From assembly GCA_965208675.1 (NCBI GenBank), contig OZ242351.1, positions 832,001 through 896,000 on the forward strand: 64,000 nucleotides of DNA. Direction: 5' to 3'. Shown piece after piece: positions 3,184-59,532 of this stretch (its first letter is position 1; every line of letters begins with the position of its first letter). A program made the translations under genes and the position numbers. The notes under the pieces were generated by a model. That model was given only the letters and a program-made list of their open reading frames with translations, ran no database searches and was not told where the DNA came from. The stretch comes from Candidatus Poribacteria bacterium (GTDB taxonomy: Bacteria; Poribacteria; WGA-4E; PCPOR2b).

Positions 3184-6030
3184 GTGGCGCAGAGTGATGC
3201 CGAACTCATAAAGCGTACGTTGGACGGCGATGATAACGCATTCGGCTTTTTGGTGGAAAAATACAAGGGCGCCGTACACGCCCTCGCTTACCGGAAAATC
3301 GGTGATTTTCACATCGCTGAGGACATTACGCAAGACACTTTCCTCAAGGCATACCAGAAACTTTCTACGCTGAAGCGTCACGAAAACTTTTCTGGATGGT
3401 TATATGTGATTGCGGCACGGTGCTGCATCTCCTGGCTTCGAGAGAATCAAAACCCAATGCAATCCCTTGAGCAGGTAGGTGCGGCGCAGGTCGAAGCATC
3501 CGCAGAAAGGGAATATTCGGACGATCGGGTGCGTAAGCGACTCCGCGATGCGCTGGAAAACCTACCTGAAAGCGACCGAACCGTTTTGACGCTGCACTAC
3601 CTTGGCGGGATGACCTACGAGGAGGTGAGCCGTTTCATCGGCGCCTCAACGAGCGCAGTCAAGAACCGTCTCTATCGGGCACGGCACCATTTGAAGGAGG
3701 AGTTAATTAAAATGATACATCAGACTTGGGGGACTCTCCAACTTCCACCAACTTTCACGCAGCAGTTGGTCGAAAAAATCTACCGTCTCAATCCAGCTCC
3801 AGCACCGGGCAGCAAGCCGCAGGCTCCATGGATCGCCGCGGTAACACTTGGCGCGGCGACGCTTGTTGTTTTGGTAGGCATGTTATCCACATCGGAATTT
3901 CAGCAACCCTATTCTCTCAACCCGTCTACGCCGGTTGAGATAGTCGAATTGACGGATGCGCCAATAGTTGAGACCTACTTGCCGAAACCGTCAATTTACG
4001 GTCACTCCGGGGGAGATGGAAATCCTGTTTTGGCTGTCACATCGGGAAGCGGTGATACGGTAGATAAACCGCGAGGTAGCATTACCGGACGTGTCACCTA
4101 CGCAGATTCTGGGAAGCCCGCCGCGAACGTACCCATTCGTGCTGCAGGCATCCAGCCGGGTATCGGAGATGCGCACGCGCACACGGGTGCAGATGGAACG
4201 TATGTTTTGGAGAATGTTCTCGTTGGACCATACGTTGTCATGATCGGCGACACCTGGGAATGGCATGAAACTTTTGATTGGCGGGCGCCGGCTAATGAAG
4301 GAATCCATGTCGAACCAGACAGCATCTCGACGGGTGTTGATTTTTCATTAACACCGGGAGGATTCGTAGAAGGCAAGATAACGGACGGCGACACAGGCGA
4401 ACCTGTCGCGGGCATACAGATCCAGGTTTACGATGCCGCGCATCCACCGAGTCAAGGCATGGGACATTGGCTCAACACCGACACCGATGGACGTTATCGA
4501 TTCCGTGTGGCACCTGGAAAAGTGGGCATTCATGTCGGTTCAATCAATACCAAAATACCATATTACATTAAATTACCCGGAGGTGAATTTTACGGGGAAG
4601 TCGTAGAGGGTGAGACGCTTTCTGATATCGACTTTGTATGCTTCCGTGGGTATAGCATACACGGTACGGTGCGTACAGCGGACAATCAGCCGGTAACGGG
4701 CGCATCCGTCCGGGCGCATATCATTCCCATTATGGGTTTAATTGAATTGCCGAATCACGCGTCGACTGATGAGCAAGGAAGATTCACATTGAAAGGCATT
4801 CCAGTAAACGAAGAAACAGAGCAGTTAGTTATCATTGCGGAACATGACAATCTCCACGGCAGAGCGAATTGGTCGAAGGAACAGGCTGATGCCGTTGAAA
4901 TTACGCTTATTCCCCGACCTACCGCTATCATCGCGGGTCAAGCAATCGACGAGCAGGGAAGTCCAATTTCCCATGCCGGAATTGGGTTGAGTTGGGAGGA
5001 GGGATTCGCAGGCACAGCCACTACTGCGCCCGATTCATCTGTTGCAGAATCTGATTCTGATGGAAATTTCACCGTCGGTCCAACATTCTCGTTTGGTAAA
5101 TCATGGTTGGAAGTCGGTGGAAAATATCAGATTCATGCCACGGCCGCCGAATATGGAAGGACTTCTTCCGAATGGTTTACTTTGCAAGAAGGCGATCATA
5201 TCGTTCCCGACCTCGTTTTGCCCAAGGCAGAATACTTCATTGCCGGGCAGGTGGTCGACTGGCAGGGTCAGCCTGTCGGCGGCGCAACCGTTTTCGCTGA
5301 AGGAACTCGTACAGCAGTAAACGGCGTCTCCGATCGTGACGGGAGATTCAATCTGAAAAATATTGCTGATAGTCGAATTCGAGTGTATGCTTTTCATCAA
5401 GGTCCCGACTGTTCTGATACAGATGCCGAATTTGATGCAAATCGGGAGGATGTGCGCGTTATATTGGCACCGAATAAACCCATGATTAGTGATGCTGCAG
5501 GTAATAGTATCCGATTCGACCCTTTTCCGTACCCGCTTGAAGGTAAGCAGGCACCCGAACTGAAAATCTATAGCCGGCACAGTTGGTTGAACTCCGAACC
5601 CATTGAGCTGAATTCACTGCGCGGCAAAATTGCTGTCTTAAATTTTTGGTCGACCTATGTCAACCAAGAAAGTTGCGACCCTTGGCTTCCAGCGCTAAGT
5701 CGCATCCATGAGAAATACAGCGATAGGAGAGTAATTGTAATCGGCGTACATACGTCCGTCCATCAATTGGAGGGACATCCTCGCATTCAAGAAATTGAGA
5801 AATCGGTTACCCAGCGGGGGATAAAATACCCGATTGCTATTGATGTGGCAGGAGCTAACGCTAATGTTGACGTGAATGACTGGCCGAGTCAATTCGGTGC
5901 AACATTTAACGACTACCTGGTACGGTCCCTTCCAACTATCCTATTCGTCGACAAGGCGGGCAAAGTCAGAACACTCTTTCTCATCGGAGGTACCCTCGAC
6001 GAGAAAGTGAACGCGTTATTGAACGAGTAA
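3184..6030 (+). CDS. ECF sigma-70 factor fused to TM helix, carboxypeptidase-regulatory-like Ig repeats and a TlpA/thioredoxin-like domain
   Basis: Sigma region 2 (AEDITQDTFLKAY, FSGWLYVIA) and region 4 (MTYEEVS...AVKNRLYRAR). Hydrophobic helix at about aa 215-235, repeated GxVxDxxGxPVxGA/TDxxGxF motifs and C-terminal VLNFWST...LPTILFVDKAGKVR. Confidence 0.9.
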   Translation: MAQSDAELIKRTLDGDDNAFGFLVEKYKGAVHALAYRKIGDFHIAEDITQDTFLKAYQKLSTLKRHENFSGWLYVIAARCCISWLRENQNPMQSLEQVGAAQVEASAEREYSDDRVRKRLRDALENLPESDRTVLTLHYLGGMTYEEVSRFIGASTSAVKNRLYRARHHLKEELIKMIHQTWGTLQLPPTFTQQLVEKIYRLNPAPAPGSKPQAPWIAAVTLGAATLVVLVGMLSTSEFQQPYSLNPSTPVEIVELTDAPIVETYLPKPSIYGHSGGDGNPVLAVTSGSGDTVDKPRGSITGRVTYADSGKPAANVPIRAAGIQPGIGDAHAHTGADGTYVLENVLVGPYVVMIGDTWEWHETFDWRAPANEGIHVEPDSISTGVDFSLTPGGFVEGKITDGDTGEPVAGIQIQVYDAAHPPSQGMGHWLNTDTDGRYRFRVAPGKVGIHVGSINTKIPYYIKLPGGEFYGEVVEGETLSDIDFVCFRGYSIHGTVRTADNQPVTGASVRAHIIPIMGLIELPNHASTDEQGRFTLKGIPVNEETEQLVIIAEHDNLHGRANWSKEQADAVEITLIPRPTAIIAGQAIDEQGSPISHAGIGLSWEEGFAGTATTAPDSSVAESDSDGNFTVGPTFSFGKSWLEVGGKYQIHATAAEYGRTSSEWFTLQEGDHIVPDLVLPKAEYFIAGQVVDWQGQPVGGATVFAEGTRTAVNGVSDRDGRFNLKNIADSRIRVYAFHQGPDCSDTDAEFDANREDVRVILAPNKPMISDAAGNSIRFDPFPYPLEGKQAPELKIYSRHSWLNSEPIELNSLRGKIAVLNFWSTYVNQESCDPWLPALSRIHEKYSDRRVIVIGVHTSVHQLEGHPRIQEIEKSVTQRGIKYPIAIDVAGANANVDVNDWPSQFGATFNDYLVRSLPTILFVDKAGKVRTLFLIGGTLDEKVNALLNE

Positions 6031-7507: not shown

Positions 7508-9241
7508 ATGCTGTGTAAAACCTCTCGGTTTCATTCGATCCAAAGCCAAAGGAGATTAAGCGACGTGTGTTCAAAAATGCCCCCTCCAAAATCCGGCACT
7601 GACAATCGCACACCGAAGGAAAAAATTGACGCCATCCACCGCCCGAAGTGGTGCATTGACACAGACGACGGCAGGCTTTACTGGGACGTAATCTGTGGGG
7701 CAATTCGCAACGATGAAAAGACGATCGCTGAGCATCTAAAGAGAAACCCGGACTGCGCACGCCTTGAGTTCTGGTATACGCCGCCGATTCATTTTGCCGT
7801 ACGCGAGGGGAATTTGGAGGCGGCGCGGCTGCTATGGAATGCATATGCCTACGAGGACGTGACCAAGCTCATCGCCATGGCGGACGACCGCGGACATGCC
7901 GGTGTTGCGGACTTTTTGCGCGGTTCAATCCAAAACGGATTCGCCGACGCGGATTTTCGGCTGCACAAGGTCGTTCAGACCCGAAATTACGGCGCTGTGG
8001 GACGGGTGTTAAGGACTCATCCGGAAATCGCCGAACACCGCGATTCAGAAGGCAGAACCGCACTCCACCTGGCGGTCATCTCCGGCAACCTGCACGCTGC
8101 ACGTTCACTATTAGCCGCCGGGGTGGAGATTGACCCTGTCGATCACTTCGGCTTTCGACCGGTTCACTACACCTGCTGGAAAAACCAATACTGGGCATGC
8201 GTTAAAGGCGGCGACACCCTCCTGAAAGCCCTGCTCGACGCCGGCGCCGCCGACAGTGCTACGCTCGCGGCGGCCCGCGGAGACCTAAACTCTGTGCGTG
8301 CATTCGTTGAGGCAAATGCGGCCAATGTGAACTACGGTGAATCGCTACAGAAACGGCCCCTATCTGCAGCGGTGGAGCGCGGTCATCGTGAAATCGTGCG
8401 TTACCTGCTTGACCGCGGCGCCGATCCGACACTGTCGGAAAGCCGGCTGTGTCCGCACGGTTCCGCACTCATGACGGCATCGGTGAACGATGATGTAGAG
8501 ATGGCACGATGGCTGTTGGACGAAGGCGCCAACCCCAATCACGGCATTGACTCGTCGGGAACGCCAGCGACTCGCGCATCGTCAGATGAAATGCGCGGGC
8601 TAATGTACCAATACGGCGGGCGCCCCGAAGCAGCCTGGGGCGTCGCGCAGCGCGGCGACCTTGAAACCTTAGCGGTGATTCTGAGTTACTGCGATGATCC
8701 CTTCAGGAATGCGGAGAGTGAATTTCTTTCGACGCCTTACACCGCCATCGTGAGCGGCTGCGGACGCCGCCTCGATAGGGGAGAGTCTACCGTTGCTTAC
8801 GAAGCCATGCTGCGCATATTCTTGCGCCGCCAGTTTCCCATGCCCAAGGTGTTAACCGAGTGCAAAAGTTACCTGTACCATGTGCCCCACATGACGCGGC
8901 AGTTGCTGGAGAACGGACTGGACCCCAATTTACACGACTGGCTGCGGCGCACGCCGTTGCACGACCTGTGCACCGGGTTGCGGCACGTAGCGGATGCAGC
9001 GGAGTTGGTGCAGATGTTTATCCAACACGGCGCCGATGTCAATGCGATTGACGAAGAAGATCGCTCGACCCCGCTTGGCATCGCTGCGCGTGAAGGGAAT
9101 GCGGCGCTCGTCAAACTGCTGCTGGAAAACGGAGCAGACCCAAACGGCTCCGGCACAAATTGGGCTAAGCCGCTGGCATGGGCGCAGCGGCGGGGGCACG
9201 ATATGATTGAGGCGACATTGCGTGAGTGCGGCGCCAACTAG
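7508..9241 (+). CDS. Ankyrin repeat protein
   Basis: Multiple ankyrin motifs (GRTALHLAV, STPLGIAAREGNAALVKLLLENGADPN). Start may be at 7577. Confidence 0.9.
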   Translation: MLCKTSRFHSIQSQRRLSDVCSKMPPPKSGTDNRTPKEKIDAIHRPKWCIDTDDGRLYWDVICGAIRNDEKTIAEHLKRNPDCARLEFWYTPPIHFAVREGNLEAARLLWNAYAYEDVTKLIAMADDRGHAGVADFLRGSIQNGFADADFRLHKVVQTRNYGAVGRVLRTHPEIAEHRDSEGRTALHLAVISGNLHAARSLLAAGVEIDPVDHFGFRPVHYTCWKNQYWACVKGGDTLLKALLDAGAADSATLAAARGDLNSVRAFVEANAANVNYGESLQKRPLSAAVERGHREIVRYLLDRGADPTLSESRLCPHGSALMTASVNDDVEMARWLLDEGANPNHGIDSSGTPATRASSDEMRGLMYQYGGRPEAAWGVAQRGDLETLAVILSYCDDPFRNAESEFLSTPYTAIVSGCGRRLDRGESTVAYEAMLRIFLRRQFPMPKVLTECKSYLYHVPHMTRQLLENGLDPNLHDWLRRTPLHDLCTGLRHVADAAELVQMFIQHGADVNAIDEEDRSTPLGIAAREGNAALVKLLLENGADPNGSGTNWAKPLAWAQRRGHDMIEATLRECGAN

Positions 9242-37309: not shown

Positions 37310-38248
37310 TTACCTACCCAATCGCAGTATGGTTCCATTAGCCCCAACAATCCAGCCTTGATTTTTATAGAGGCAAATATCAAGAAGGTTATGTTCTGCT
37401 AGGCTCGGTTGTGTTTCCCAGCTTTGCCCACCATTGACTGTGTGTAAAATCAATCCATGTTCGCCCACTGCCCAGCCTTTTCGATCATTGAGAAATGCGA
37501 CAGCTCGTAAAGTTTTCTTGGTATTGCTTTTTTGCCGTACCCAGTTTGCTCCCCCGTTCACCGTGTTCAAAATCAAACCGTTCACGCCAACAATCCACCC
37601 GTTCTCCACGTCGGCAAAATAAACACCGAACAGTGGTTCTTCCGTGTTGCTCTGCTGTTCAAGCCAGGATGCACCGCCGTTTGAAGTATAGGAGACTTTG
37701 CCTTGCTCTCCGACCATCCAGCCATTCTGATCGTCAACAAAATTCACCGCCCATGCGTGTGTGCCCGTCGGCGACTGCTGATTCTCCCACCGACGGCCGC
37801 CGTTGTTCGTGTGAAGAATCGTTCCACTTCCCCCAACTGCCCAGCCTTCTGCCGGACTCACGAAGTAGACGTCCAACAAACCAGCCTGCTTGGCATTGGT
37901 TTGTCTTGTCCACGACTTGCCGCCGCTTGCAGTATAGAAAATTTGTCCCGTCCTATTGACAAACCACCCGTGGGTTGAACTAGAAAAATGCACTTTATTG
38001 ATTACAGAATTGGGAATTGCGTCGTTTTCCGGCTGAATCGCCCACGTCACACCGCCATCCGTAGTGGCTAAAACCACACTATCCTCACCGACTGCCCATC
38101 CATGCTTGCTATCCACAAAATGGACACCATATAAGTGAGCATCTGTTCCTGATTCAGCGAACTGCCAACGAATTCCCGCGGTATCTCGATTGCAAGCGGC
38201 AAGGACGGTTATACCAGTTAACACTAGCAATACCGCACGATGTTTCAT
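37310..38248 (-). CDS. YCF48-related beta-propeller lipoprotein
   Basis: Lipobox LAAC and seven repeats of LxxVxFxDxxxGWxVGxxGxILxTxxGGxxW. Confidence 0.9.
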   Translation of the reverse strand: MKHRAVLLVLTGITVLAACNRDTAGIRWQFAESGTDAHLYGVHFVDSKHGWAVGEDSVVLATTDGGVTWAIQPENDAIPNSVINKVHFSSSTHGWFVNRTGQIFYTASGGKSWTRQTNAKQAGLLDVYFVSPAEGWAVGGSGTILHTNNGGRRWENQQSPTGTHAWAVNFVDDQNGWMVGEQGKVSYTSNGGASWLEQQSNTEEPLFGVYFADVENGWIVGVNGLILNTVNGGANWVRQKSNTKKTLRAVAFLNDRKGWAVGEHGLILHTVNGGQSWETQPSLAEHNLLDICLYKNQGWIVGANGTILRLGR

Positions 38249-38432
38249 CAAGTTTTGCCTCCTCGGCAATTTTCCTTAAGTTGTTCCGATTCGATGTACA
38301 AATTAACTTGCAAATTAAGCGGCGGTTTTGTATGCGCTCATCTAGGACACAATGGACCTTATCTTTTTGTTACGAGTTCTCACTAAATGTTTCGAGAAAA
38401 ACGAGTCAACAGTCAGGAAACTGGAATTTGTG

Positions 38433-38461
38433 TTGACAAACCGATGTGCGTATGCTAAGCT
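38433..38461 (+). promoter_or_regulatory. Sigma70 promoter
   Basis: TTGACA-17nt-TAAGCT with extended -10 TG. Confidence 0.7.
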
Positions 38462-38465
38462 ATCG

Positions 38466-38604
38466 CTATCTCAATAAGCGAAAGGGGGTGATCATTCTGT
38501 CATTTAGCGGAATGGTCAAGGGAGGTGCGGCCTCCTGAGGGGTCGTCCCTCCCTTGACTATTAATCCAGCTACAAGGCGGGGCTGAATTTTAGCCCCGCT
38601 TTTT
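38466..38604 (+). ncRNA. Candidate ~135-nt structured sRNA or attenuator upstream of dapB
   Basis: Own promoter, a 21-bp hairpin at 38513-38560 and an intrinsic terminator; no convincing ORF. Confidence 0.55.
38577..38604 (+). terminator. Rho-independent terminator
   Basis: GCGGGGCTGA-ATT-TTAGCCCCGC followed by TTTTT. Confidence 0.8.
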
Positions 38605-38704
38605 ATTTCGATTTACACACAATGGCAAATACCCCGCGCTCCAAACATCTTAAAAGAAAAATTGAATGAACATCTCATCACGTATGGAAAAGGAAGAAAG
38701 AAAG

Positions 38705-39508
38705 ATGATTCGTGTAATTGTTGATGGTGTGTGTGGACGAATGGGCAAACTGTTGGCACAAGGCGTGACCCGCGAGGAGGACATGAAACTTGTCGGTGCG
38801 GTAGAATTTGCCGGACACCCTAATGTCGGTGAAGATGCTGGCGAGATGTTGGGAATGGGGCGGCTCGGCGTACCCGTAAGAGGAAGCCTTTCTGAAGTTG
38901 TCTGTGACAGCGATGTAGTCATAGAATTTACCAAACCAGAAGCGACCCTTGAAAACGTCCGAGCAGTGGTTGAAGCAAACCGGGCGATGGTAATTGGAAC
39001 AACCGGATTTACGGACAATCAACTCGCCGAACTACAAGCATTAGCGGCGAAAATCCGCTGTGTGATGGCGCCAAATATGAGTGTCGGCGTCAATGTTATG
39101 TTGCAAGCGATTCAGCTAGTCGCAAAGGCGCTCGGAGCTGACTACGATGTTGAGGTCATCGAGGCGCACCATAACGAAAAGGTAGACGCTCCAAGCGGTA
39201 CGGCGATTCGGATTGCCGAAACCCTATCCTCCGCTCTTGACAGAAGTCTGCCCCAAGCGGCAGTTTATGGCCGCCATGGGATTGTAGGGAAACGTACAGA
39301 AAAGGAGATTGGGATACACGCCATTCGCGGCGGGGATATCGCCGGTGACCACACCGTACTCTTCGCTGGAGCAGGTGAGCGAATCGAGATTGTGCATCGC
39401 GCACATACGCCCGAAGCTTTTGCGAAAGGGGCAATCCGTGCAGCAAGGTGGGTCGTTGCGGCGCCGCCGGGATTGCACGACATTGGAGAAGTTTTGTTTT
39501 CACAATAA
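38705..39508 (+). CDS. dapB: 4-hydroxy-tetrahydrodipicolinate reductase
   Basis: GRMG, VIGTTG, EAHHNEKVDAPSGTA, IRGGDIAGDHTV. Confidence 0.97.
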   Translation: MIRVIVDGVCGRMGKLLAQGVTREEDMKLVGAVEFAGHPNVGEDAGEMLGMGRLGVPVRGSLSEVVCDSDVVIEFTKPEATLENVRAVVEANRAMVIGTTGFTDNQLAELQALAAKIRCVMAPNMSVGVNVMLQAIQLVAKALGADYDVEVIEAHHNEKVDAPSGTAIRIAETLSSALDRSLPQAAVYGRHGIVGKRTEKEIGIHAIRGGDIAGDHTVLFAGAGERIEIVHRAHTPEAFAKGAIRAARWVVAAPPGLHDIGEVLFSQ

Positions 39509-39549: not shown

Positions 39550-40245
39550 TCATTTTTGAGGTCCGGCAGGCGGCAATTTTACACCTTTCTGCAGATGTTC
39601 TTGTTTATCCCGTAATTTTGCGATTGAGTGCATAATGAGTTCTCCGATACGCCGCTGTGCTTCTCGTCTGTCCACAATTTCAAGAATTTTTTTGAAATCT
39701 ATGGGCTGACCAAATGTCACCGAAAGTTTTGCCGGCTTCAACCATTTCGCATCCCGGGGCATCATCTGTTCCGCCCCCTTAAGAAATACAGGAATTGTAG
39801 GGACATTAGCGCGATAAGCGATGAAACTAGCCCCACCGAGTGCCTTGCCTAAGACGCCGCCGACGCCGCGGGTACCTTCGGGGAAAATGAGAACGGCTTT
39901 GCCCATCTTTAAGAGCGACAGTGTATGTTTGAGGGCGGCTCGATCGGCTGCCCCTCGATGCACGGGGTAAGCATTTAGCGCGGTAATCAGCCAACTTAGT
40001 CCGGGAATTCGAAACACGTCGTGCCTAGCCATATAATGGAGTTCTCGGTTTGCGGCTGTTCCAATAATGACAGGGTCTGGAAGGCTAACGTGGTTCGACA
40101 CCAAAAGAACGCCGCCTTGCATCGGAACATTCTCACTGCCGTAGGATTCAAGTTTTCCCAAGGCATTGAAGAAAAAAGAGGTAATTCGGTGCGACCGACG
40201 GTACACAGGTTGATCTGTCCGGAAGCTGTATTTCCGCCATTGCAT
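39550..40245 (-). CDS. plsC: 1-acyl-sn-glycerol-3-phosphate acyltransferase
   Basis: NHVSLPD and FPEGTR; follows cmk. Confidence 0.9.
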   Translation of the reverse strand: MQWRKYSFRTDQPVYRRSHRITSFFFNALGKLESYGSENVPMQGGVLLVSNHVSLPDPVIIGTAANRELHYMARHDVFRIPGLSWLITALNAYPVHRGAADRAALKHTLSLLKMGKAVLIFPEGTRGVGGVLGKALGGASFIAYRANVPTIPVFLKGAEQMMPRDAKWLKPAKLSVTFGQPIDFKKILEIVDRREAQRRIGELIMHSIAKLRDKQEHLQKGVKLPPAGPQK

Positions 40246-40919
40246 TATAGACCTCGAATTCGCCCTAAAACAAAATTAACGACTTGATCGATGGTCATAT
40301 CGGTTGTATCGACAACGATAGCATCTTCGGCAGTTCGAAGCGGGCTATGTTCACGGGAGCGATCCTTGGTATCCCGCGTCCGGATTTCCTCTTGTATCCC
40401 GTTTAGCGTGGAATCAATCCCCTTAGCTTTCAGTTCAGCAAACCGTCGTCGTGCACGTGCTTCAACCGAGGCGGTCAGAAAATATTTGTGGTCCGCATTC
40501 GGAAACACAACTGTAGTAACGTCGCGGCCCTCCGCGACAATCGAAATATCCGCACCGATTCTGCGCTGCTGTTTGACAATTTCTTGCCGAAGTTCGGATA
40601 TCTTTGAAATATCGGAGACCACCTTGTTAATTTCTGGCGTTCGGATTGCGTCTGAGACATCCTCGCCATCAAGCAATGCAATCTTTCCGTTCTCGGCGAA
40701 ATCAATATTACACGTTTTCACTAGCCGAATTAACTCCGGGATATTTGTTGGATCTATGCCAGTGCGAATCGATTGCAGCGTCACTGCGCGGTACATCGCA
40801 CCGGAATCAAGGTAGAGACAATTCAATGATTCAGCGAGGCGTCGAGCAACAGTGCTCTTACCTGAGCCGGCAGGTCCATCTATTGCAACCGTCAAGTGTT
40901 TGATTGTTTTACCTCCCAA
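40245..40919 (-). CDS. cmk: Cytidylate kinase
   Basis: AIDGPAGSGKST, DSGAMYRA, EGRDVTTVVFP. Confidence 0.97.
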   Translation of the reverse strand: MGGKTIKHLTVAIDGPAGSGKSTVARRLAESLNCLYLDSGAMYRAVTLQSIRTGIDPTNIPELIRLVKTCNIDFAENGKIALLDGEDVSDAIRTPEINKVVSDISKISELRQEIVKQQRRIGADISIVAEGRDVTTVVFPNADHKYFLTASVEARARRRFAELKAKGIDSTLNGIQEEIRTRDTKDRSREHSPLRTAEDAIVVDTTDMTIDQVVNFVLGRIRGL

Positions 40920-41812
40920 GCGTCCCGTATGGATTTGGACGCATTCAGGATACGCTCAATCTCACCTGCGTCGCCATTTTCGAGGAGCGATTTAAATTGG
41001 GCAAGGTTCTCAATGACGGCATCAATCATCGGTTGCAGTGCAGGGGCGTTTTGCATAAAAATGCCTCTCCAAATCTCCGGCGAACCCGATGCAATACGTG
41101 TAGTGTCGCGGAAACCGCTTGCTGCGTAGTCCGATGCGCTAACTGAATCACCTTCTATTTGCGCCACTGTCTTCGTCAAAATTGACGCAATTAGGTGTGG
41201 AAGATGGCTGGCGCCTGCGATGAGATGGTCGTGCAGATTCGGATCGAGCAGATGAACATTTGCCCCAACAAACTTCCAAAGTTCGACAACACGTGCTAAC
41301 GCCTGCGAGTCGGTATTCCCAATTGGGGTAACGATGCATTTCGCTCCATTGAAAAGATCGGCACGCGCTGCAGCGACTCCAGTTTTTTCCGATCCTGCCA
41401 TTGGATGGGATCCGACGAATCGCACGCAGTTAGGTTTTTCGACTTGCAGGAAACTATTGACTTCTTTAACGATCTGCCCTTTGACGCCGGCGACATCGGT
41501 GATATACAAAGTGGCTGCGTCAGATCTGACACGCTTGGCACACTCTGAAATGCGCCGCACGGTATCCGATACGCGATCTACCGGCATACCAATAATGACC
41601 AAATCGCATTCACGGATGGCTGCAGAAATGTCGATTGTAGCATGGTCAATTGCGTTGTGCTGGAGAGCAACTTCAAGTGTGCTCATCCGCCTTCCGAGCC
41701 CGGTGATTGTTCCCCGGAATCCTTTGGCTTTCAAGGCCAATCCGAGTGAGCCGCCAATCAGGCCGGTGCCAAAGATTGTAATATTTCGAATCTTCCGAAA
41801 GTCATCAGCCAT
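40892..41812 (-). CDS. tyrA: Prephenate dehydrogenase
   Basis: GTGLIGGS, HPMAGSEK, SHLPH, GFRDTTRIA. Confidence 0.93.
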   Translation of the reverse strand: MADDFRKIRNITIFGTGLIGGSLGLALKAKGFRGTITGLGRRMSTLEVALQHNAIDHATIDISAAIRECDLVIIGMPVDRVSDTVRRISECAKRVRSDAATLYITDVAGVKGQIVKEVNSFLQVEKPNCVRFVGSHPMAGSEKTGVAAARADLFNGAKCIVTPIGNTDSQALARVVELWKFVGANVHLLDPNLHDHLIAGASHLPHLIASILTKTVAQIEGDSVSASDYAASGFRDTTRIASGSPEIWRGIFMQNAPALQPMIDAVIENLAQFKSLLENGDAGEIERILNASKSIRDAWEVKQSNT

Positions 41813-41814
41813 AT

Positions 41815-41987
41815 TATGCGTAGGTGTTTTGACCTGTCGACTGGGCGGCTCTGTGTAAAGACAAACCGACCATTTCTCGGGAGCGAGGATTCCTTCTTGC
41901 TGCAAGAAGTCCTGAAATCAACGCGCTTGAATGAGTCCATCTCAAGTTGCAGCGTCAAAACTAAAACCCTTATAGGTAGTTACTGGT
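41815..41987 (-). ncRNA. Candidate 6S-like long-hairpin RNA or structured leader of tyrA-cmk-plsC
   Basis: GTTTTGAC/GTCAAAAC long-range pairing, a central unpaired region and apical hairpin CTTCTTGC-A-GCAAGAAG; about 175 nt after a perfect promoter. Confidence 0.35.
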
Positions 41988-56508: not shown

Positions 56509-59500
56509 CTACCGGTATTCAACAATTCCATCGAGTTCCCAGATACGCATGGTTCCATCACCCGAATTCGAGAGTAATTTCGCGCCATCGCGGCTGAAGT
56601 CTAACGAACTGATCTGTCCTCGATGTTCTCTCAACCCTGCGACGCTTTGCCATGTTTGTGTCTCAATGAGTTCGACAGCGTGGTCCGTTCTGCCCACCGC
56701 CAGCAATGACGTATCCGGATTGAGGGCAACGCTGAGTGGATAAACGAACTCTGGTGTCTTCGGTAGGTAGCCGGGGAGTAGCGTTTTGTCGACGGTGCCA
56801 CTAGCGATATCAAAGACCACGAAATTCCCCGACGCAAGTCCTGCGAATAACCGCTCGCCGTCCTTACTGAACTGCAAGAACATCGGCAAATTGGGAGTAT
56901 CCTGTTGACCATCTGCTTTCGGTTGCCCCCCTCCATCAAGCAGTGGCAAATCGGAAGGCATACTCAATTTCTGGCTTAGTTTACCCGTTTGCACATCCCA
57001 TATCCAGATGGCATCAAACTTGCCGCCACAGGCAAGTCGTTTCCCGTCCGGGCTAAACGCAAGTGCCCTCACCATTGGCTCTATTCTTCCTATGAATCGA
57101 AATAATCGGTGTAATGCCGGCTTTCCATGATTGACAAGTCGATTCACTTCGGTCGCTGTCGAAATGTCCCACAAGCTTGCGGTATAGGCATGTTCGCCAA
57201 TAGCAAGTTGCTTCCCGTCCGGGCTAAATGCCAGTGCGTGAGGGTCATTACGGTCAAAGGGAATACGATGAGTTACTTCCCGCTTTGTAGCATCCCAGAT
57301 TTGAATCTCTTTATGATTGATATCCGGAACCGCGACGTGATTATTTACCGGACTGACGGCGGAAATTCGCGGATAAAAATCTTTCAAGAAAATACCCTTC
57401 TCGATGATGTCCCCTGTATTCGCCTTGAAAAGTGAAAGGCTAGTACCTGTGCTGAGGATTGTGTCATCATCATGCAAGAAATTCGCACGCCATCCTAAAG
57501 ATATGCCCGGTCTGATCGTTACCGCCCGCGACAATTTCTGCATCCCCACATCCAGCAGTTTAACCGAAGCCCCTTCATTAAAAAGCAGGTGCGTATCGTT
57601 GAGAAATTGGCTATTTGTCATACCCTCGCCCACATGAACCAGTTCGCCTGTTTGGAAATTCCACACGGCGTTTCCCAGTGCGAGGTAACGTCCGTCGGGT
57701 GAGAAAGCGATTGAGTCATCCGCAACTGTGCCACCACGCACTTTGAAGGTCTTTCTGACCTCCCAATCAGTTGTATCTACTACATCAACCCGGCGTTCTT
57801 CCCACGCTCGGAACGCGAACCATTGACCCTCCGGGCTGTATGCGGAGGTCGTCACTGCCGGAACATCATACGGAATGTCGAATTTGTGTAGAATTTCACC
57901 ATTCTGGGGATTGATGAAAAAGAATTGGTGCGGGTTCTCACCATATTTGGCTCCCGATTTAAATATCATCAGTTGCCTCCCATCTGGACTATATTCCATG
58001 GCGTGAACGGCGGGGCCTTGGGTCTCCCATTCAAATGAGCGAATCCAATCGCCTGAAATCGGATCGATGAACATAATTTCATCCAAAGCCAACGCCACAG
58101 CGACCTCCTTCATCTCTGGATGGATTGCTGTGTGGTTAATAAAATCCCACGCCGCACCCGGCTGGGAGTAGACGCTTAGCTTATCGCCTTCTTTTCGTAC
58201 GCCACAAATACGGGGGATGTCTCGATCCCAGAAGTGCCAATCAACTTGGGTTGGTACGGAAGAAGGAAAATAGATATCGTCAGACAGCCGCAAGCCGTGC
58301 TCAGCAAACACGTTTCGCATGTCATCTGAAATGATCTGATTATCTAAATCGGTTGCAAACTCCGACCCAATGTGGAACAGGAATTTCATTTTAAATGAAT
58401 GAGTCCCAACCAAAGCTTGTTTCTCAATATCCCATACCTTTAACTGTTTCGTGCCGTGCCAGACCAGAAATCGGCTATCGCGGCTGAAAGTTGGGGATTG
58501 AATGTCTCCAGCGGTATCGACAGTGATTGGTGGTTGGTTACCATCGGGCTGATGCAGCTCCAAGCCAAATGGCGTAAGGACCGTAAACCGCTTCCCATCT
58601 GGTGACGTGGCAATGTCCTGAATGCGACCGTTGCCGATGACCTGTACAGACGTCACGCTGATTATGTCGCCAACACCATTCTGTCCGCCCGGTTCTACCC
58701 GTTTGGTTGGCACACCAATCCGTTTCTTCGGCGTGTCCGCTTGTGCTACCTGAATAGCCGAGTCGGTATTGAGTAACGACACGTTGACCGCATCCTGCGA
58801 CGCGCCACCGTCTCTGCCCGTTTGAAAAAGCCCTGTGAGTCCACCTAGCAACACAACGCTCAAAGCAGCAGCGAGCGGAAGCGGCGCGAACCGATGTGCT
58901 TTTGGTACGGGGGAACTCGGCACCGACGGCTTCGAGAGCGGAGCAATTTTGTCCAAGATTGCCAAACAAAAGTTGGGTTTGGCGGGCGAGCCGAAGTATT
59001 CTTCAAATGTACTTTTTAACCGCAGACCGAGCTGCTGGCGTGCGCGAAACAGACGGACTTTAATCGCCTCACGCGATATCCCCAAGAATTCCCCAATCTC
59101 TTTGAGGGTGAATCCGCTGAAGTAGTGCATTAGAACGACCAGCCGTTGTGATTCTGGTAAGGCATCAATCTCTTTTTTGACCGTGAGTTGCGTTTCTGGA
59201 TCACTATATATCGGTGAGGTTGTAGTTACCGTTTCAGCGGCAGATTCCAACGGTTCGTGAAATTGATGCTTGCGGTGCCACATTCGGCATTCGTTGGAAG
59301 CGATCGTATATAACCAACTCCGAAAAGCGTACGGTTTTTTCAGTTGTCCAAGGTTGAGATAGGCTTTGAGCAGCACCTCTTGTGTGGTATCTTTTGCGTC
59401 CTCTTCGCTTGGTACCTGGTTCAGACAATACGCATAGACTGCCCCTTGGTAGCAGTCAACCAAGAATACGAACGCGTCTTTATCCCCATCTAACACCGCC

Positions 59501-59532
59501 TTGACTAAACCGGCATCATCATCGTAACGCAT
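56509..59532 (-). CDS. ECF sigma-70 factor fused to TM helix and WD40 beta-propellers
   Basis: Region 2 (DAKDTTQEVLLKAY, FRSWLYTIA), region 4 (FTLKEIGEFLG...KVRLFRAR), one TM and many AFSPDG...WD repeats. Confidence 0.92.
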   Translation of the reverse strand: MRYDDDAGLVKAVLDGDKDAFVFLVDCYQGAVYAYCLNQVPSEEDAKDTTQEVLLKAYLNLGQLKKPYAFRSWLYTIASNECRMWHRKHQFHEPLESAAETVTTTSPIYSDPETQLTVKKEIDALPESQRLVVLMHYFSGFTLKEIGEFLGISREAIKVRLFRARQQLGLRLKSTFEEYFGSPAKPNFCLAILDKIAPLSKPSVPSSPVPKAHRFAPLPLAAALSVVLLGGLTGLFQTGRDGGASQDAVNVSLLNTDSAIQVAQADTPKKRIGVPTKRVEPGGQNGVGDIISVTSVQVIGNGRIQDIATSPDGKRFTVLTPFGLELHQPDGNQPPITVDTAGDIQSPTFSRDSRFLVWHGTKQLKVWDIEKQALVGTHSFKMKFLFHIGSEFATDLDNQIISDDMRNVFAEHGLRLSDDIYFPSSVPTQVDWHFWDRDIPRICGVRKEGDKLSVYSQPGAAWDFINHTAIHPEMKEVAVALALDEIMFIDPISGDWIRSFEWETQGPAVHAMEYSPDGRQLMIFKSGAKYGENPHQFFFINPQNGEILHKFDIPYDVPAVTTSAYSPEGQWFAFRAWEERRVDVVDTTDWEVRKTFKVRGGTVADDSIAFSPDGRYLALGNAVWNFQTGELVHVGEGMTNSQFLNDTHLLFNEGASVKLLDVGMQKLSRAVTIRPGISLGWRANFLHDDDTILSTGTSLSLFKANTGDIIEKGIFLKDFYPRISAVSPVNNHVAVPDINHKEIQIWDATKREVTHRIPFDRNDPHALAFSPDGKQLAIGEHAYTASLWDISTATEVNRLVNHGKPALHRLFRFIGRIEPMVRALAFSPDGKRLACGGKFDAIWIWDVQTGKLSQKLSMPSDLPLLDGGGQPKADGQQDTPNLPMFLQFSKDGERLFAGLASGNFVVFDIASGTVDKTLLPGYLPKTPEFVYPLSVALNPDTSLLAVGRTDHAVELIETQTWQSVAGLREHRGQISSLDFSRDGAKLLSNSGDGTMRIWELDGIVEYR

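Follow-up and report, generated by a model that had tools for sequence, protein, structure and literature searches.

What does the region between dapB and its divergently oriented upstream neighbor encode in Candidatus Poribacteria? We addressed this question in a single stretch of 64,000 nt (hereafter the window; GTDB WGA-4E; PCPOR2b; assembly GCA_965208675.1, contig OZ242351.1, positions 832,001-896,000, forward strand), in which a structured element lies upstream of the 4-hydroxy-tetrahydrodipicolinate reductase gene dapB (38705-39508, + strand; Pfam DapB_N, E 5e-39; DapB_C, E 7e-43). A preliminary description of this element had put forward three readings: an unannotated stand-alone structured small RNA (sRNA), a micropeptide mRNA translated from a non-AUG start, and a switchable attenuator of lysine biosynthesis. 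Our analysis supports the first. A promoter and a terminator are kept in all three sequences that carry the element, conservation exceeds the neutral level, compensatory changes preserve pairing on the + strand, and no known Rfam family accounts for the locus. We therefore consider a stand-alone sRNA gene at this position likely.

The comparison set was obtained by scanning species-representative genomes with the DapB protein, which returned 79 loci, titled mostly as Candidatus Poribacteria and in a few cases as "uncultured bacterium" alone. Just two of them, L001 and L002, carry the 14-nt motif described below at the window's distance from dapB. These two are also the nearest relatives of the window (DapB 83% identical) and the only ones among the 79 to share its gene order of Ycf48-like gene, dapB, acyltransferase and cmk. 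The element alignment thus comprises three sequences, those of the window, L001 and L002, and a covariance model built from them matched these three and nothing else in 711,160 bases. None of the other 77 loci gave a match; they were searched around dapB only, and the RNA may sit elsewhere in those genomes. Similarly, blastn against plasmid and phage collections returned nothing similar to the element, and the 64-kb window contains neither a second copy nor a near-complement of it. The element appears specific to one Poribacteria lineage and represents a well-supported new, narrowly distributed family of candidate sRNAs.

The putative transcript is bounded by recognizable signals on the + strand. 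Upstream lies a promoter-like site (38433-38461) with a -35 hexamer TTGACA (38433-38438), a 17-nt spacer, TG at 38453-38454 and a -10 hexamer TAAGCT (38456-38461). This site had been called a consensus promoter; it is present, but the epithet is too strong, as its -10 hexamer matches the consensus at just three of six positions and the site is absent from the list of the promoter scan for the window. In both L001 and L002 the scan does list the aligned site, TTGACA-17-TATGCT with TG (10 of 12 positions), and 21 of its 29 positions are invariant across the three sequences. From the -10 hexamer, transcription is predicted to start near 38468. At the other end, the strong terminator previously noted about 100 nt 5' of dapB is indeed there: an intrinsic terminator (38574-38608, + strand) with a GC-rich stem at 38574-38602 and a T-run, TTTTTATTT, ending at 38608, which the scan lists in the window, L001 and L002 and which includes one compensatory pair. 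The resulting RNA would be about 140 nt long (~38468-38605, + strand, both ends predicted), and the longest frame inside the element has 16 codons.

Between these signals, selection acts on the RNA of the + strand. Across the three species, 35 of the 38 positions from 38476 to 38513 are invariant. The corresponding counts are 56 of 115 (49%) for the four-fold sites of dapB, 80 of 172 for the upstream intergenic sequence and 55 of 98 for the sequence that separates the terminator from dapB. In the hairpin and terminator (41 pairs counted), 120 of 123 pair cells are standard (97.6%), and four pairs have changed on both sides, a result attained by 8 of 500 shuffles; controls in which the structure was slid along the sequence were 38-53% paired. 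Collecting homologs and checking covariation thus produced two relatives and four compensatory pairs. Among the 30 pairs of the long hairpin, three show two-sided changes and nine show one-sided changes compatible with pairing. The mirror structure on the - strand retains pairing in 87.0% of cells, with 10 pairs broken. Because the one-sided changes give G-U on the + strand and C-A on the - strand, a DNA palindrome or a - strand RNA is ruled out as the selected object.

The core of the conserved 5' segment (38476-38513, + strand) is a 14-nt motif, GAAAGGGGGTGATC (38480-38493, + strand), complementary with one G-U to the canonical 3' tail of 16S rRNA; we refer to it as the Shine-Dalgarno (SD) mimic. 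The segment further includes two near-cognate start codons, AUU (38494) and CUG (38497), and, from helix H1 described below, the 5' strand and the loop. The tail used here is a short canonical motif, presumed to be close to the host's, from which it may differ; against this tail, the extended complementarity claimed in the preliminary description is borne out. The mimic begins 12 nt past the predicted transcription start, is invariant in all three sequences and is the sole match in the window at up to two mismatches. With the tail it would form 14 contiguous pairs. At the starts of the 478 open reading frames (ORFs) with 200 codons or more in the window and the 79 loci, each start being crudely set to the first ATG, the longest run was 9. 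In 20,000 random 25-mers the longest run was 10, bar one of 13 that we assume, unchecked, to overlap the element. The predicted duplex with the canonical tail has an energy of -25.7 kcal/mol for the mimic, -6.4 for the SD of dapB and -11.6 for that of the Ycf48-like gene. Genuine starts in several loci, for instance GAGGTGAT-5 nt-ATG, agree with the same tail and suggest a canonical anti-SD in Poribacteria, at least as far as AUCACCUC. As had been noted, no ATG or GTG stands at start spacing 3' of the motif, and this holds for TTG as well; however, AUU 38494 and CUG 38497 sit 5 and 8 nt past its GGGGG core.

The whole 141-nt stretch is predicted to fold strongly on the + strand (-69.3 kcal/mol, z = -6.9, none of 200 shuffles as stable), with -53.1 kcal/mol (z = -4.7 against shuffles) on the opposite strand. 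Two folds compete within it. The 21-bp hairpin of the preliminary description is present, and the predicted fold lengthens it to about 30 bp (38505-38572, + strand; 5' arm 38505-38534, loop CTGA 38535-38538, 3' arm 38539-38572). This long hairpin, fold A, is both the minimum-energy fold of the window and the RNAalifold consensus; within its arms a further SD-like run, AAGGGAGGTG, is paired to the anti-SD-like CCTCCCTT, and the mimic is left largely free. In fold B, the minimum-energy fold of L001 and L002, the upper 20 bp of the hairpin (38515-38558) are kept, while the remainder is rearranged into a three-way junction. There, helix H1 (38490-38517, + strand) is formed by GATCATTCTG (38490-38499) and CGGAATGGTC (38508-38517) around the loop TCATTTAG, with 10 bp of which two are G-U. 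H1 takes in nucleotides from the base of the long hairpin, with which it competes, in agreement with the competing helix reported earlier. The linker ATTAATCCAGCT (38560-38571, + strand) in turn pairs with the mimic and with a preceding AGC (38485-38492 with 38560-38567, and 38477-38479 with 38569-38571), so that only GAAAG stays free.

The helix that hides the mimic in fold B is well kept. It joins GGGGUGAU (38485-38492) to GUUACUCC in the linker (AUUAAUCC in the window, 38560-38567), 23 of its 24 cells are paired, the exception being a G.A in the window, and 11 of the 13 positions of the linker region 38561-38573 are invariant. The G at 38486, the single departure of the mimic from a canonical SD, pairs with a C in the hiding helix and would form a G-U with 16S rRNA; that it can pair in both duplexes would fit a sequence serving two partners. 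Over the three sequences 147 of 150 cells of fold B are paired. For the window, fold A has a free minimum energy of -69.3 kcal/mol, or -66.7 with the mimic held single-stranded, and fold B reaches -64.8 with all eight counted H1 pairs enforced. With the mimic held single-stranded, fold A amounts to -68.3 in L001 and -58.0 in L002, compared with free minima in fold B of -76.0 and -66.1, respectively. As fold B is built of successive local helices, it should form first during transcription. The terminator is indifferent to this choice: its hairpin was present in every one of the 15 folds, free and constrained, that were predicted for the three sequences, including those in which the 5' arm of the hairpin or a ribosome-sized footprint was blocked, all of them thermodynamic predictions. 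A conformational switch is probably present in this RNA; it would gate the SD-like motif and not the terminator.

Known families offer little precedent for this architecture. No Rfam family reached its gathering score anywhere in the window, which agrees with the earlier description of the element as unannotated. The best match was to RF01867 (CC2171), whose gathering score is 75; the window reached 21.1 bits with it (E 0.022), in an alignment that replaces 91 model positions by 13 nt and rests on the GAAAGG-GGUGAUC stretch and the terminal hairpin. In L001 and L002 this family did not come up even with the E limit raised to 10. CC2171, found in Caulobacter and other Alphaproteobacteria, resembles the element in its conserved 5' part with an extended motif (GAAAGGAGGUGAUC in the model consensus) and in its GC-rich end hairpin. 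It belongs to a different phylum, however, and the likeness is confined to the SD-like stretch and the terminal hairpin. CC2171 is reported to be expressed, with no condition identified as affecting it (10.1101/2022.01.24.477521). The other sub-threshold matches in the three 561-nt regions searched were of a generic hairpin kind, to models of microRNA precursors and a small number of sRNAs; all these matches were taken as noise or superficial likeness. An origin of the motif as a remnant of the 16S 3' end on the - strand was also considered and rejected, the match being confined to the 14 nt.

A closer parallel is the STAB-SD of the Bacillus thuringiensis cry3A mRNA, which is reported to bind the 30S subunit without initiation and to block RNase J1 (PMC4113751, citing Agaisse and Lereclus 1996). 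In that account, the STAB-SD shares with our element an SD-like sequence that is complementary to the 16S 3' end (here judged against the canonical tail, which may not be the host's) and has no canonical start after it. It lies near the 5' end of its transcript, as the mimic would with the predicted start, and holds a 30S subunit, as the mimic may. The same source places it in the long 5' untranslated region (UTR) of a protein-coding mRNA of a Firmicute, with a role shown by experiment. Unlike the STAB-SD as described there, the element would be a stand-alone terminated RNA of about 140 nt, and its motif is 14 nt long and can be masked by an internal helix. Open-access full-text searches for SD-like stabilizers in sRNAs gave nothing beyond the STAB-SD, and word searches of the same literature returned no comparable anti-SD-sequestering sRNA and no study of Poribacteria sRNAs.

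By analogy, we tentatively favor, as a possibility still short of probable, a model in which the independent sRNA carries a gated SD mimic that docks on the 16S tail of the 30S subunit without normal translation. The RNA would be laid out as a short free 5' end, the 14-nt mimic, a compact body with two forms and a constitutive intrinsic terminator. The 3' tail of 16S rRNA, borne by a 30S subunit, would pair with the mimic, beginning at the free GAAAG and displacing the weaker internal helix, which is predicted at -4.2, -10.1 and -10.2 kcal/mol in the three sequences. The subunit would then be held on the RNA and normal translation would not ensue, as the mimic is followed by no start codon other than AUU and CUG and, 8-11 nt further on, by a very stable hairpin. 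Docking may thereby shield the 5' end of the RNA, as the STAB-SD does for the cry3A mRNA, and it could also occupy 30S subunits. In this model the ingredients are known, an intrinsic-terminated sRNA and an SD-like docking motif, and their self-gating arrangement would be the unusual part. If the RNA is made and the mimic does hold 30S subunits, SD-like docking without translation, so far known from a few Gram-positive mRNA leaders, would extend to a free-standing, self-gating sRNA in an uncultured sponge-symbiont phylum.

Several points weigh against this docking model. The alignment comprises three sequences only, and since the dapB genes of L001 and L002 are 91% identical at the nucleotide level, the sample amounts to about two lineages. 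The start and 3' end of the transcript are predictions, and complementarity was judged against a canonical 16S tail that may not be the host's. The favored fold varies by species, being A in the window and B by about 8 kcal/mol in L001 and L002, where the mimic is predicted to be nearly all paired (unpaired probability ~0.01 to 0.14). Covariation cannot choose between the folds, as the helices specific to fold B hardly vary; for H1 it is neutral, its eight counted pairs never varying. Conservation also reaches further than the model needs: the 24 invariant nt past the mimic appear to exceed what a docking site requires. No RNase J, the kind of 5'-3' exonuclease that docking would hold off, turned up in the window (49 ORFs, 64 kb of the genome). 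The AUU and CUG stand at start-codon spacing, and the frame that they would open stops at the same codon in all three sequences despite a change of TGA to TAG (TGA, TAG, TAG). Finally, no promoter is listed for dapB in the window, where read-through from the element may therefore feed dapB.

The excess of conservation is accommodated by a first alternative, in which the RNA is a base-pairing regulator or sponge whose purine-rich invariant 5' segment pairs with pyrimidine-rich partners, its likeness to an SD reflecting the nature of the partner. One kind of partner would be anti-SD arms that keep the 5' UTR of a target inhibited, so that pairing would activate the target by an anti-antisense mechanism; C-rich sRNAs would be another. 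The layout is that of a trans-acting sRNA, with a seed-like 5' segment, a structured body, an A/U-rich linker and a terminator with a U-tail; the invariant stretch is longer than ribosome docking requires, and within the RNA SD-like runs already pair with anti-SD-like runs. No partner was found, however, and the window offers no second copy or near-complement that could serve as one. Predicted duplexes with the initiation region of dapB and with the starts of 48 further ORFs of the window did not rise above shuffled controls (best -26.0; controls with a mean of -20.5, a standard deviation of 3.6 and a minimum of -36.6). This target test is a weak one, as it covered 64 kb of the genome and whole-length duplex prediction on long sequences is a poor model. 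We regard regulation by base pairing as rather unlikely. A CsrA-type sponge was set aside: the GGA motifs of the element are few and lie in stems, not in loops.

A second alternative, which we also rate as rather unlikely, takes the mimic as a real and very strong ribosome-binding site, so that the element would be a very small mRNA or a dual-function sRNA. Translation would run from CUG 38497 or AUU 38494 to UGA 38536-38538 and yield 13-14 residues; in a variant that shares this low standing, the act of translation would itself melt the hairpin and thereby remodel the RNA. The candidate frame, ILSFSGMVKGGAAS (38494-38538, + strand; 14 codons from AUU or 13 from CUG, with the stop in the hairpin loop), reads AUU CUG UCA UUU AGC GGA AUG GUC AAG GGA GGU GCG GCC UCC UGA. 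Apart from the spacing and the shared stop mentioned above, three features are consistent with translation. Starts in related loci have an ATG 3-5 nt after GGTGAT, and the CUG follows at 4 nt; the hairpin arm that would be coding is the more conserved one (16 of 22 positions, versus 11 of 21 in the 3' arm); and the weak CC2171 similarity aligns a conserved GUG at a similar distance past the same motif.

The substitution pattern nevertheless argues against a peptide. There is no AUG, GUG or UUG start, and the stable hairpin begins 8-11 nt past the candidate starts. The changes are mostly non-synonymous (S>L, K>E, A>V, A>T and S>F; a single one is purely synonymous) and show no third-position bias. 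Indeed, 11 of 14 third positions are invariant, compared with 55% in dapB, which points to constraint on nucleotides rather than on protein. The shared stop is weak evidence, because a loop of the form Y-U-R-R makes a stop in three of the four purine combinations. At 13-14 residues the product is also too short for the available homology searches. Of the earlier proposal of a non-AUG micropeptide mRNA, then, the in-frame stop stands in all three sequences and the expected coding signature does not; translation of the tiny ORF is possible, not indicated. Dual-function sRNAs that encode small peptides include SgrS/SgrT, RNAIII/hld and SR1/SR1P. Like them, the element would be a short terminated transcript that joins a structured body to a ribosome-binding site and a very short frame. 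Theirs have canonical starts and selection at the protein level, whereas here the starts would be AUU or CUG and the substitutions look non-coding.

The proximity to dapB raises a third alternative, a cis-acting leader: transcripts from the promoter at 38433 would mostly halt at the terminator, and regulated read-through would supply dapB. The element lies directly 5' of dapB in the same orientation in all three genomes, and the scan listed no promoter between terminator and dapB in the window (38606-38704), where the sequence aligned to the dapB promoter of the relatives is degenerate. In L001 and L002, however, a promoter-like TTGCTA/TTGCGA-17-TATACT (9 of 12 positions; 3902-3930 in L001, 3903-3931 in L002, from the promoter scan) follows right behind the terminator and presumably belongs to dapB. 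With the terminator formed in every predicted fold and in no alternative pairing, and with a separate dapB promoter in the relatives, the element is most likely a stand-alone RNA and not a lysine attenuator, and dapB is probably not part of its transcription unit. We consider a dapB leader improbable.

Specific signs of lysine control did not appear either. A search of the three 561-nt regions that admitted E values up to 10 did not bring up the lysine riboswitch (RF00168), and in these regions no riboswitch or other cis-regulatory Rfam family came near its gathering score. The would-be leader peptide contains a single Lys codon in the window and L002, replaced by GAG (Glu) in L001, and has no canonical start; moreover, the element is absent from the other 77 Poribacteria dapB loci. 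With lysine riboswitches and leader-peptide attenuators the element shares a promoter-proximal structured RNA and an intrinsic terminator 5' of a lysine-pathway gene. Unlike them, it has no competing antiterminator, no Rfam match and no run of regulatory codons, and dapB has its own promoter-like site in two of the three genomes. The switchable attenuator of the preliminary description is thus not supported. A candidate antiterminator between the 3' arm of the hairpin and the 5' arm of the terminator pairs 10 of 12 positions by eye in the window; it occurred in no constrained fold, is weaker in L001 and L002 than in the window, and was rejected.

A further reading, very doubtful in our judgment, builds on the docking model and makes the RNA a ribosome-directed riboregulator. 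The gated mimic would occupy the anti-SD of free 30S subunits and tune or protect the initiating pool, with no single mRNA target, and the timing of its exposure would be set by the switch from one of the two folds to the other. If true, such an anti-SD-targeting regulator would constitute a new mode of global translational control. Last, a chance hairpin, a DNA palindrome acting as a protein-binding site or repeat, or a - strand RNA is highly improbable and already disfavored by the data above: the L001 hairpin is a perfect 44-nt palindrome matched by the model on both strands and the - strand folds better than its shuffles, but one-sided changes stay paired on the + strand only, promoter and terminator T-run lie on the + strand in all three sequences, no other copies exist in the window, the 79 loci or the plasmid and phage collections, and conservation is far above neutral.

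The palindromic hairpin of L001 (3811-3854) consists of 20 bp and a palindromic loop, CTAG, and scores 45.2 bits with the covariance model on both strands. As a continuous duplex of at least 20 bp, it would be a plausible RNase III substrate.

Upstream of the element, a direct repeat, GTTACGAG and GTTTCGAG, occupies 38369-38376 and 38389-38396, 20 nt apart and 37-64 nt 5' of the -35 hexamer of the sRNA; L001 and L002 both have it in the form of two copies of GTTTCAAG. The repeat could be a regulator-binding site, for either the sRNA or the divergent Ycf48-like gene. The latter encodes a Ycf48-like BNR protein (37313-38248, - strand; 2605-3543 in L001 and 2602-3522 in L002) that evolves faster than its neighbors, being 49-52% identical between the window and its relatives, compared with 77-83% for DapB, the PlsC-like acyltransferase and Cmk.

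Elsewhere in the window, two very long proteins appear from their domain content to be unusual sigma-factor fusions. Both begin with N-terminal regions 2 and 4 of an extracytoplasmic function (ECF)-type sigma-70 factor, followed by CarboxypepD_reg and AhpC-TSA in one (3184-6027, + strand) and by a WD40 beta-propeller in the other (56512-59532, - strand). A 577-residue ankyrin-repeat protein (Ank_2, E 1.6e-51) is encoded at 7508-9238 (+ strand); eukaryote-like repeat proteins are typical of sponge symbionts. Downstream of dapB, two - strand ORFs, those of cmk (40245-40919) and prephenate dehydrogenase (40892-41905), share 28 nt (40892-40919), and the true start of cmk may lie further in than listed.

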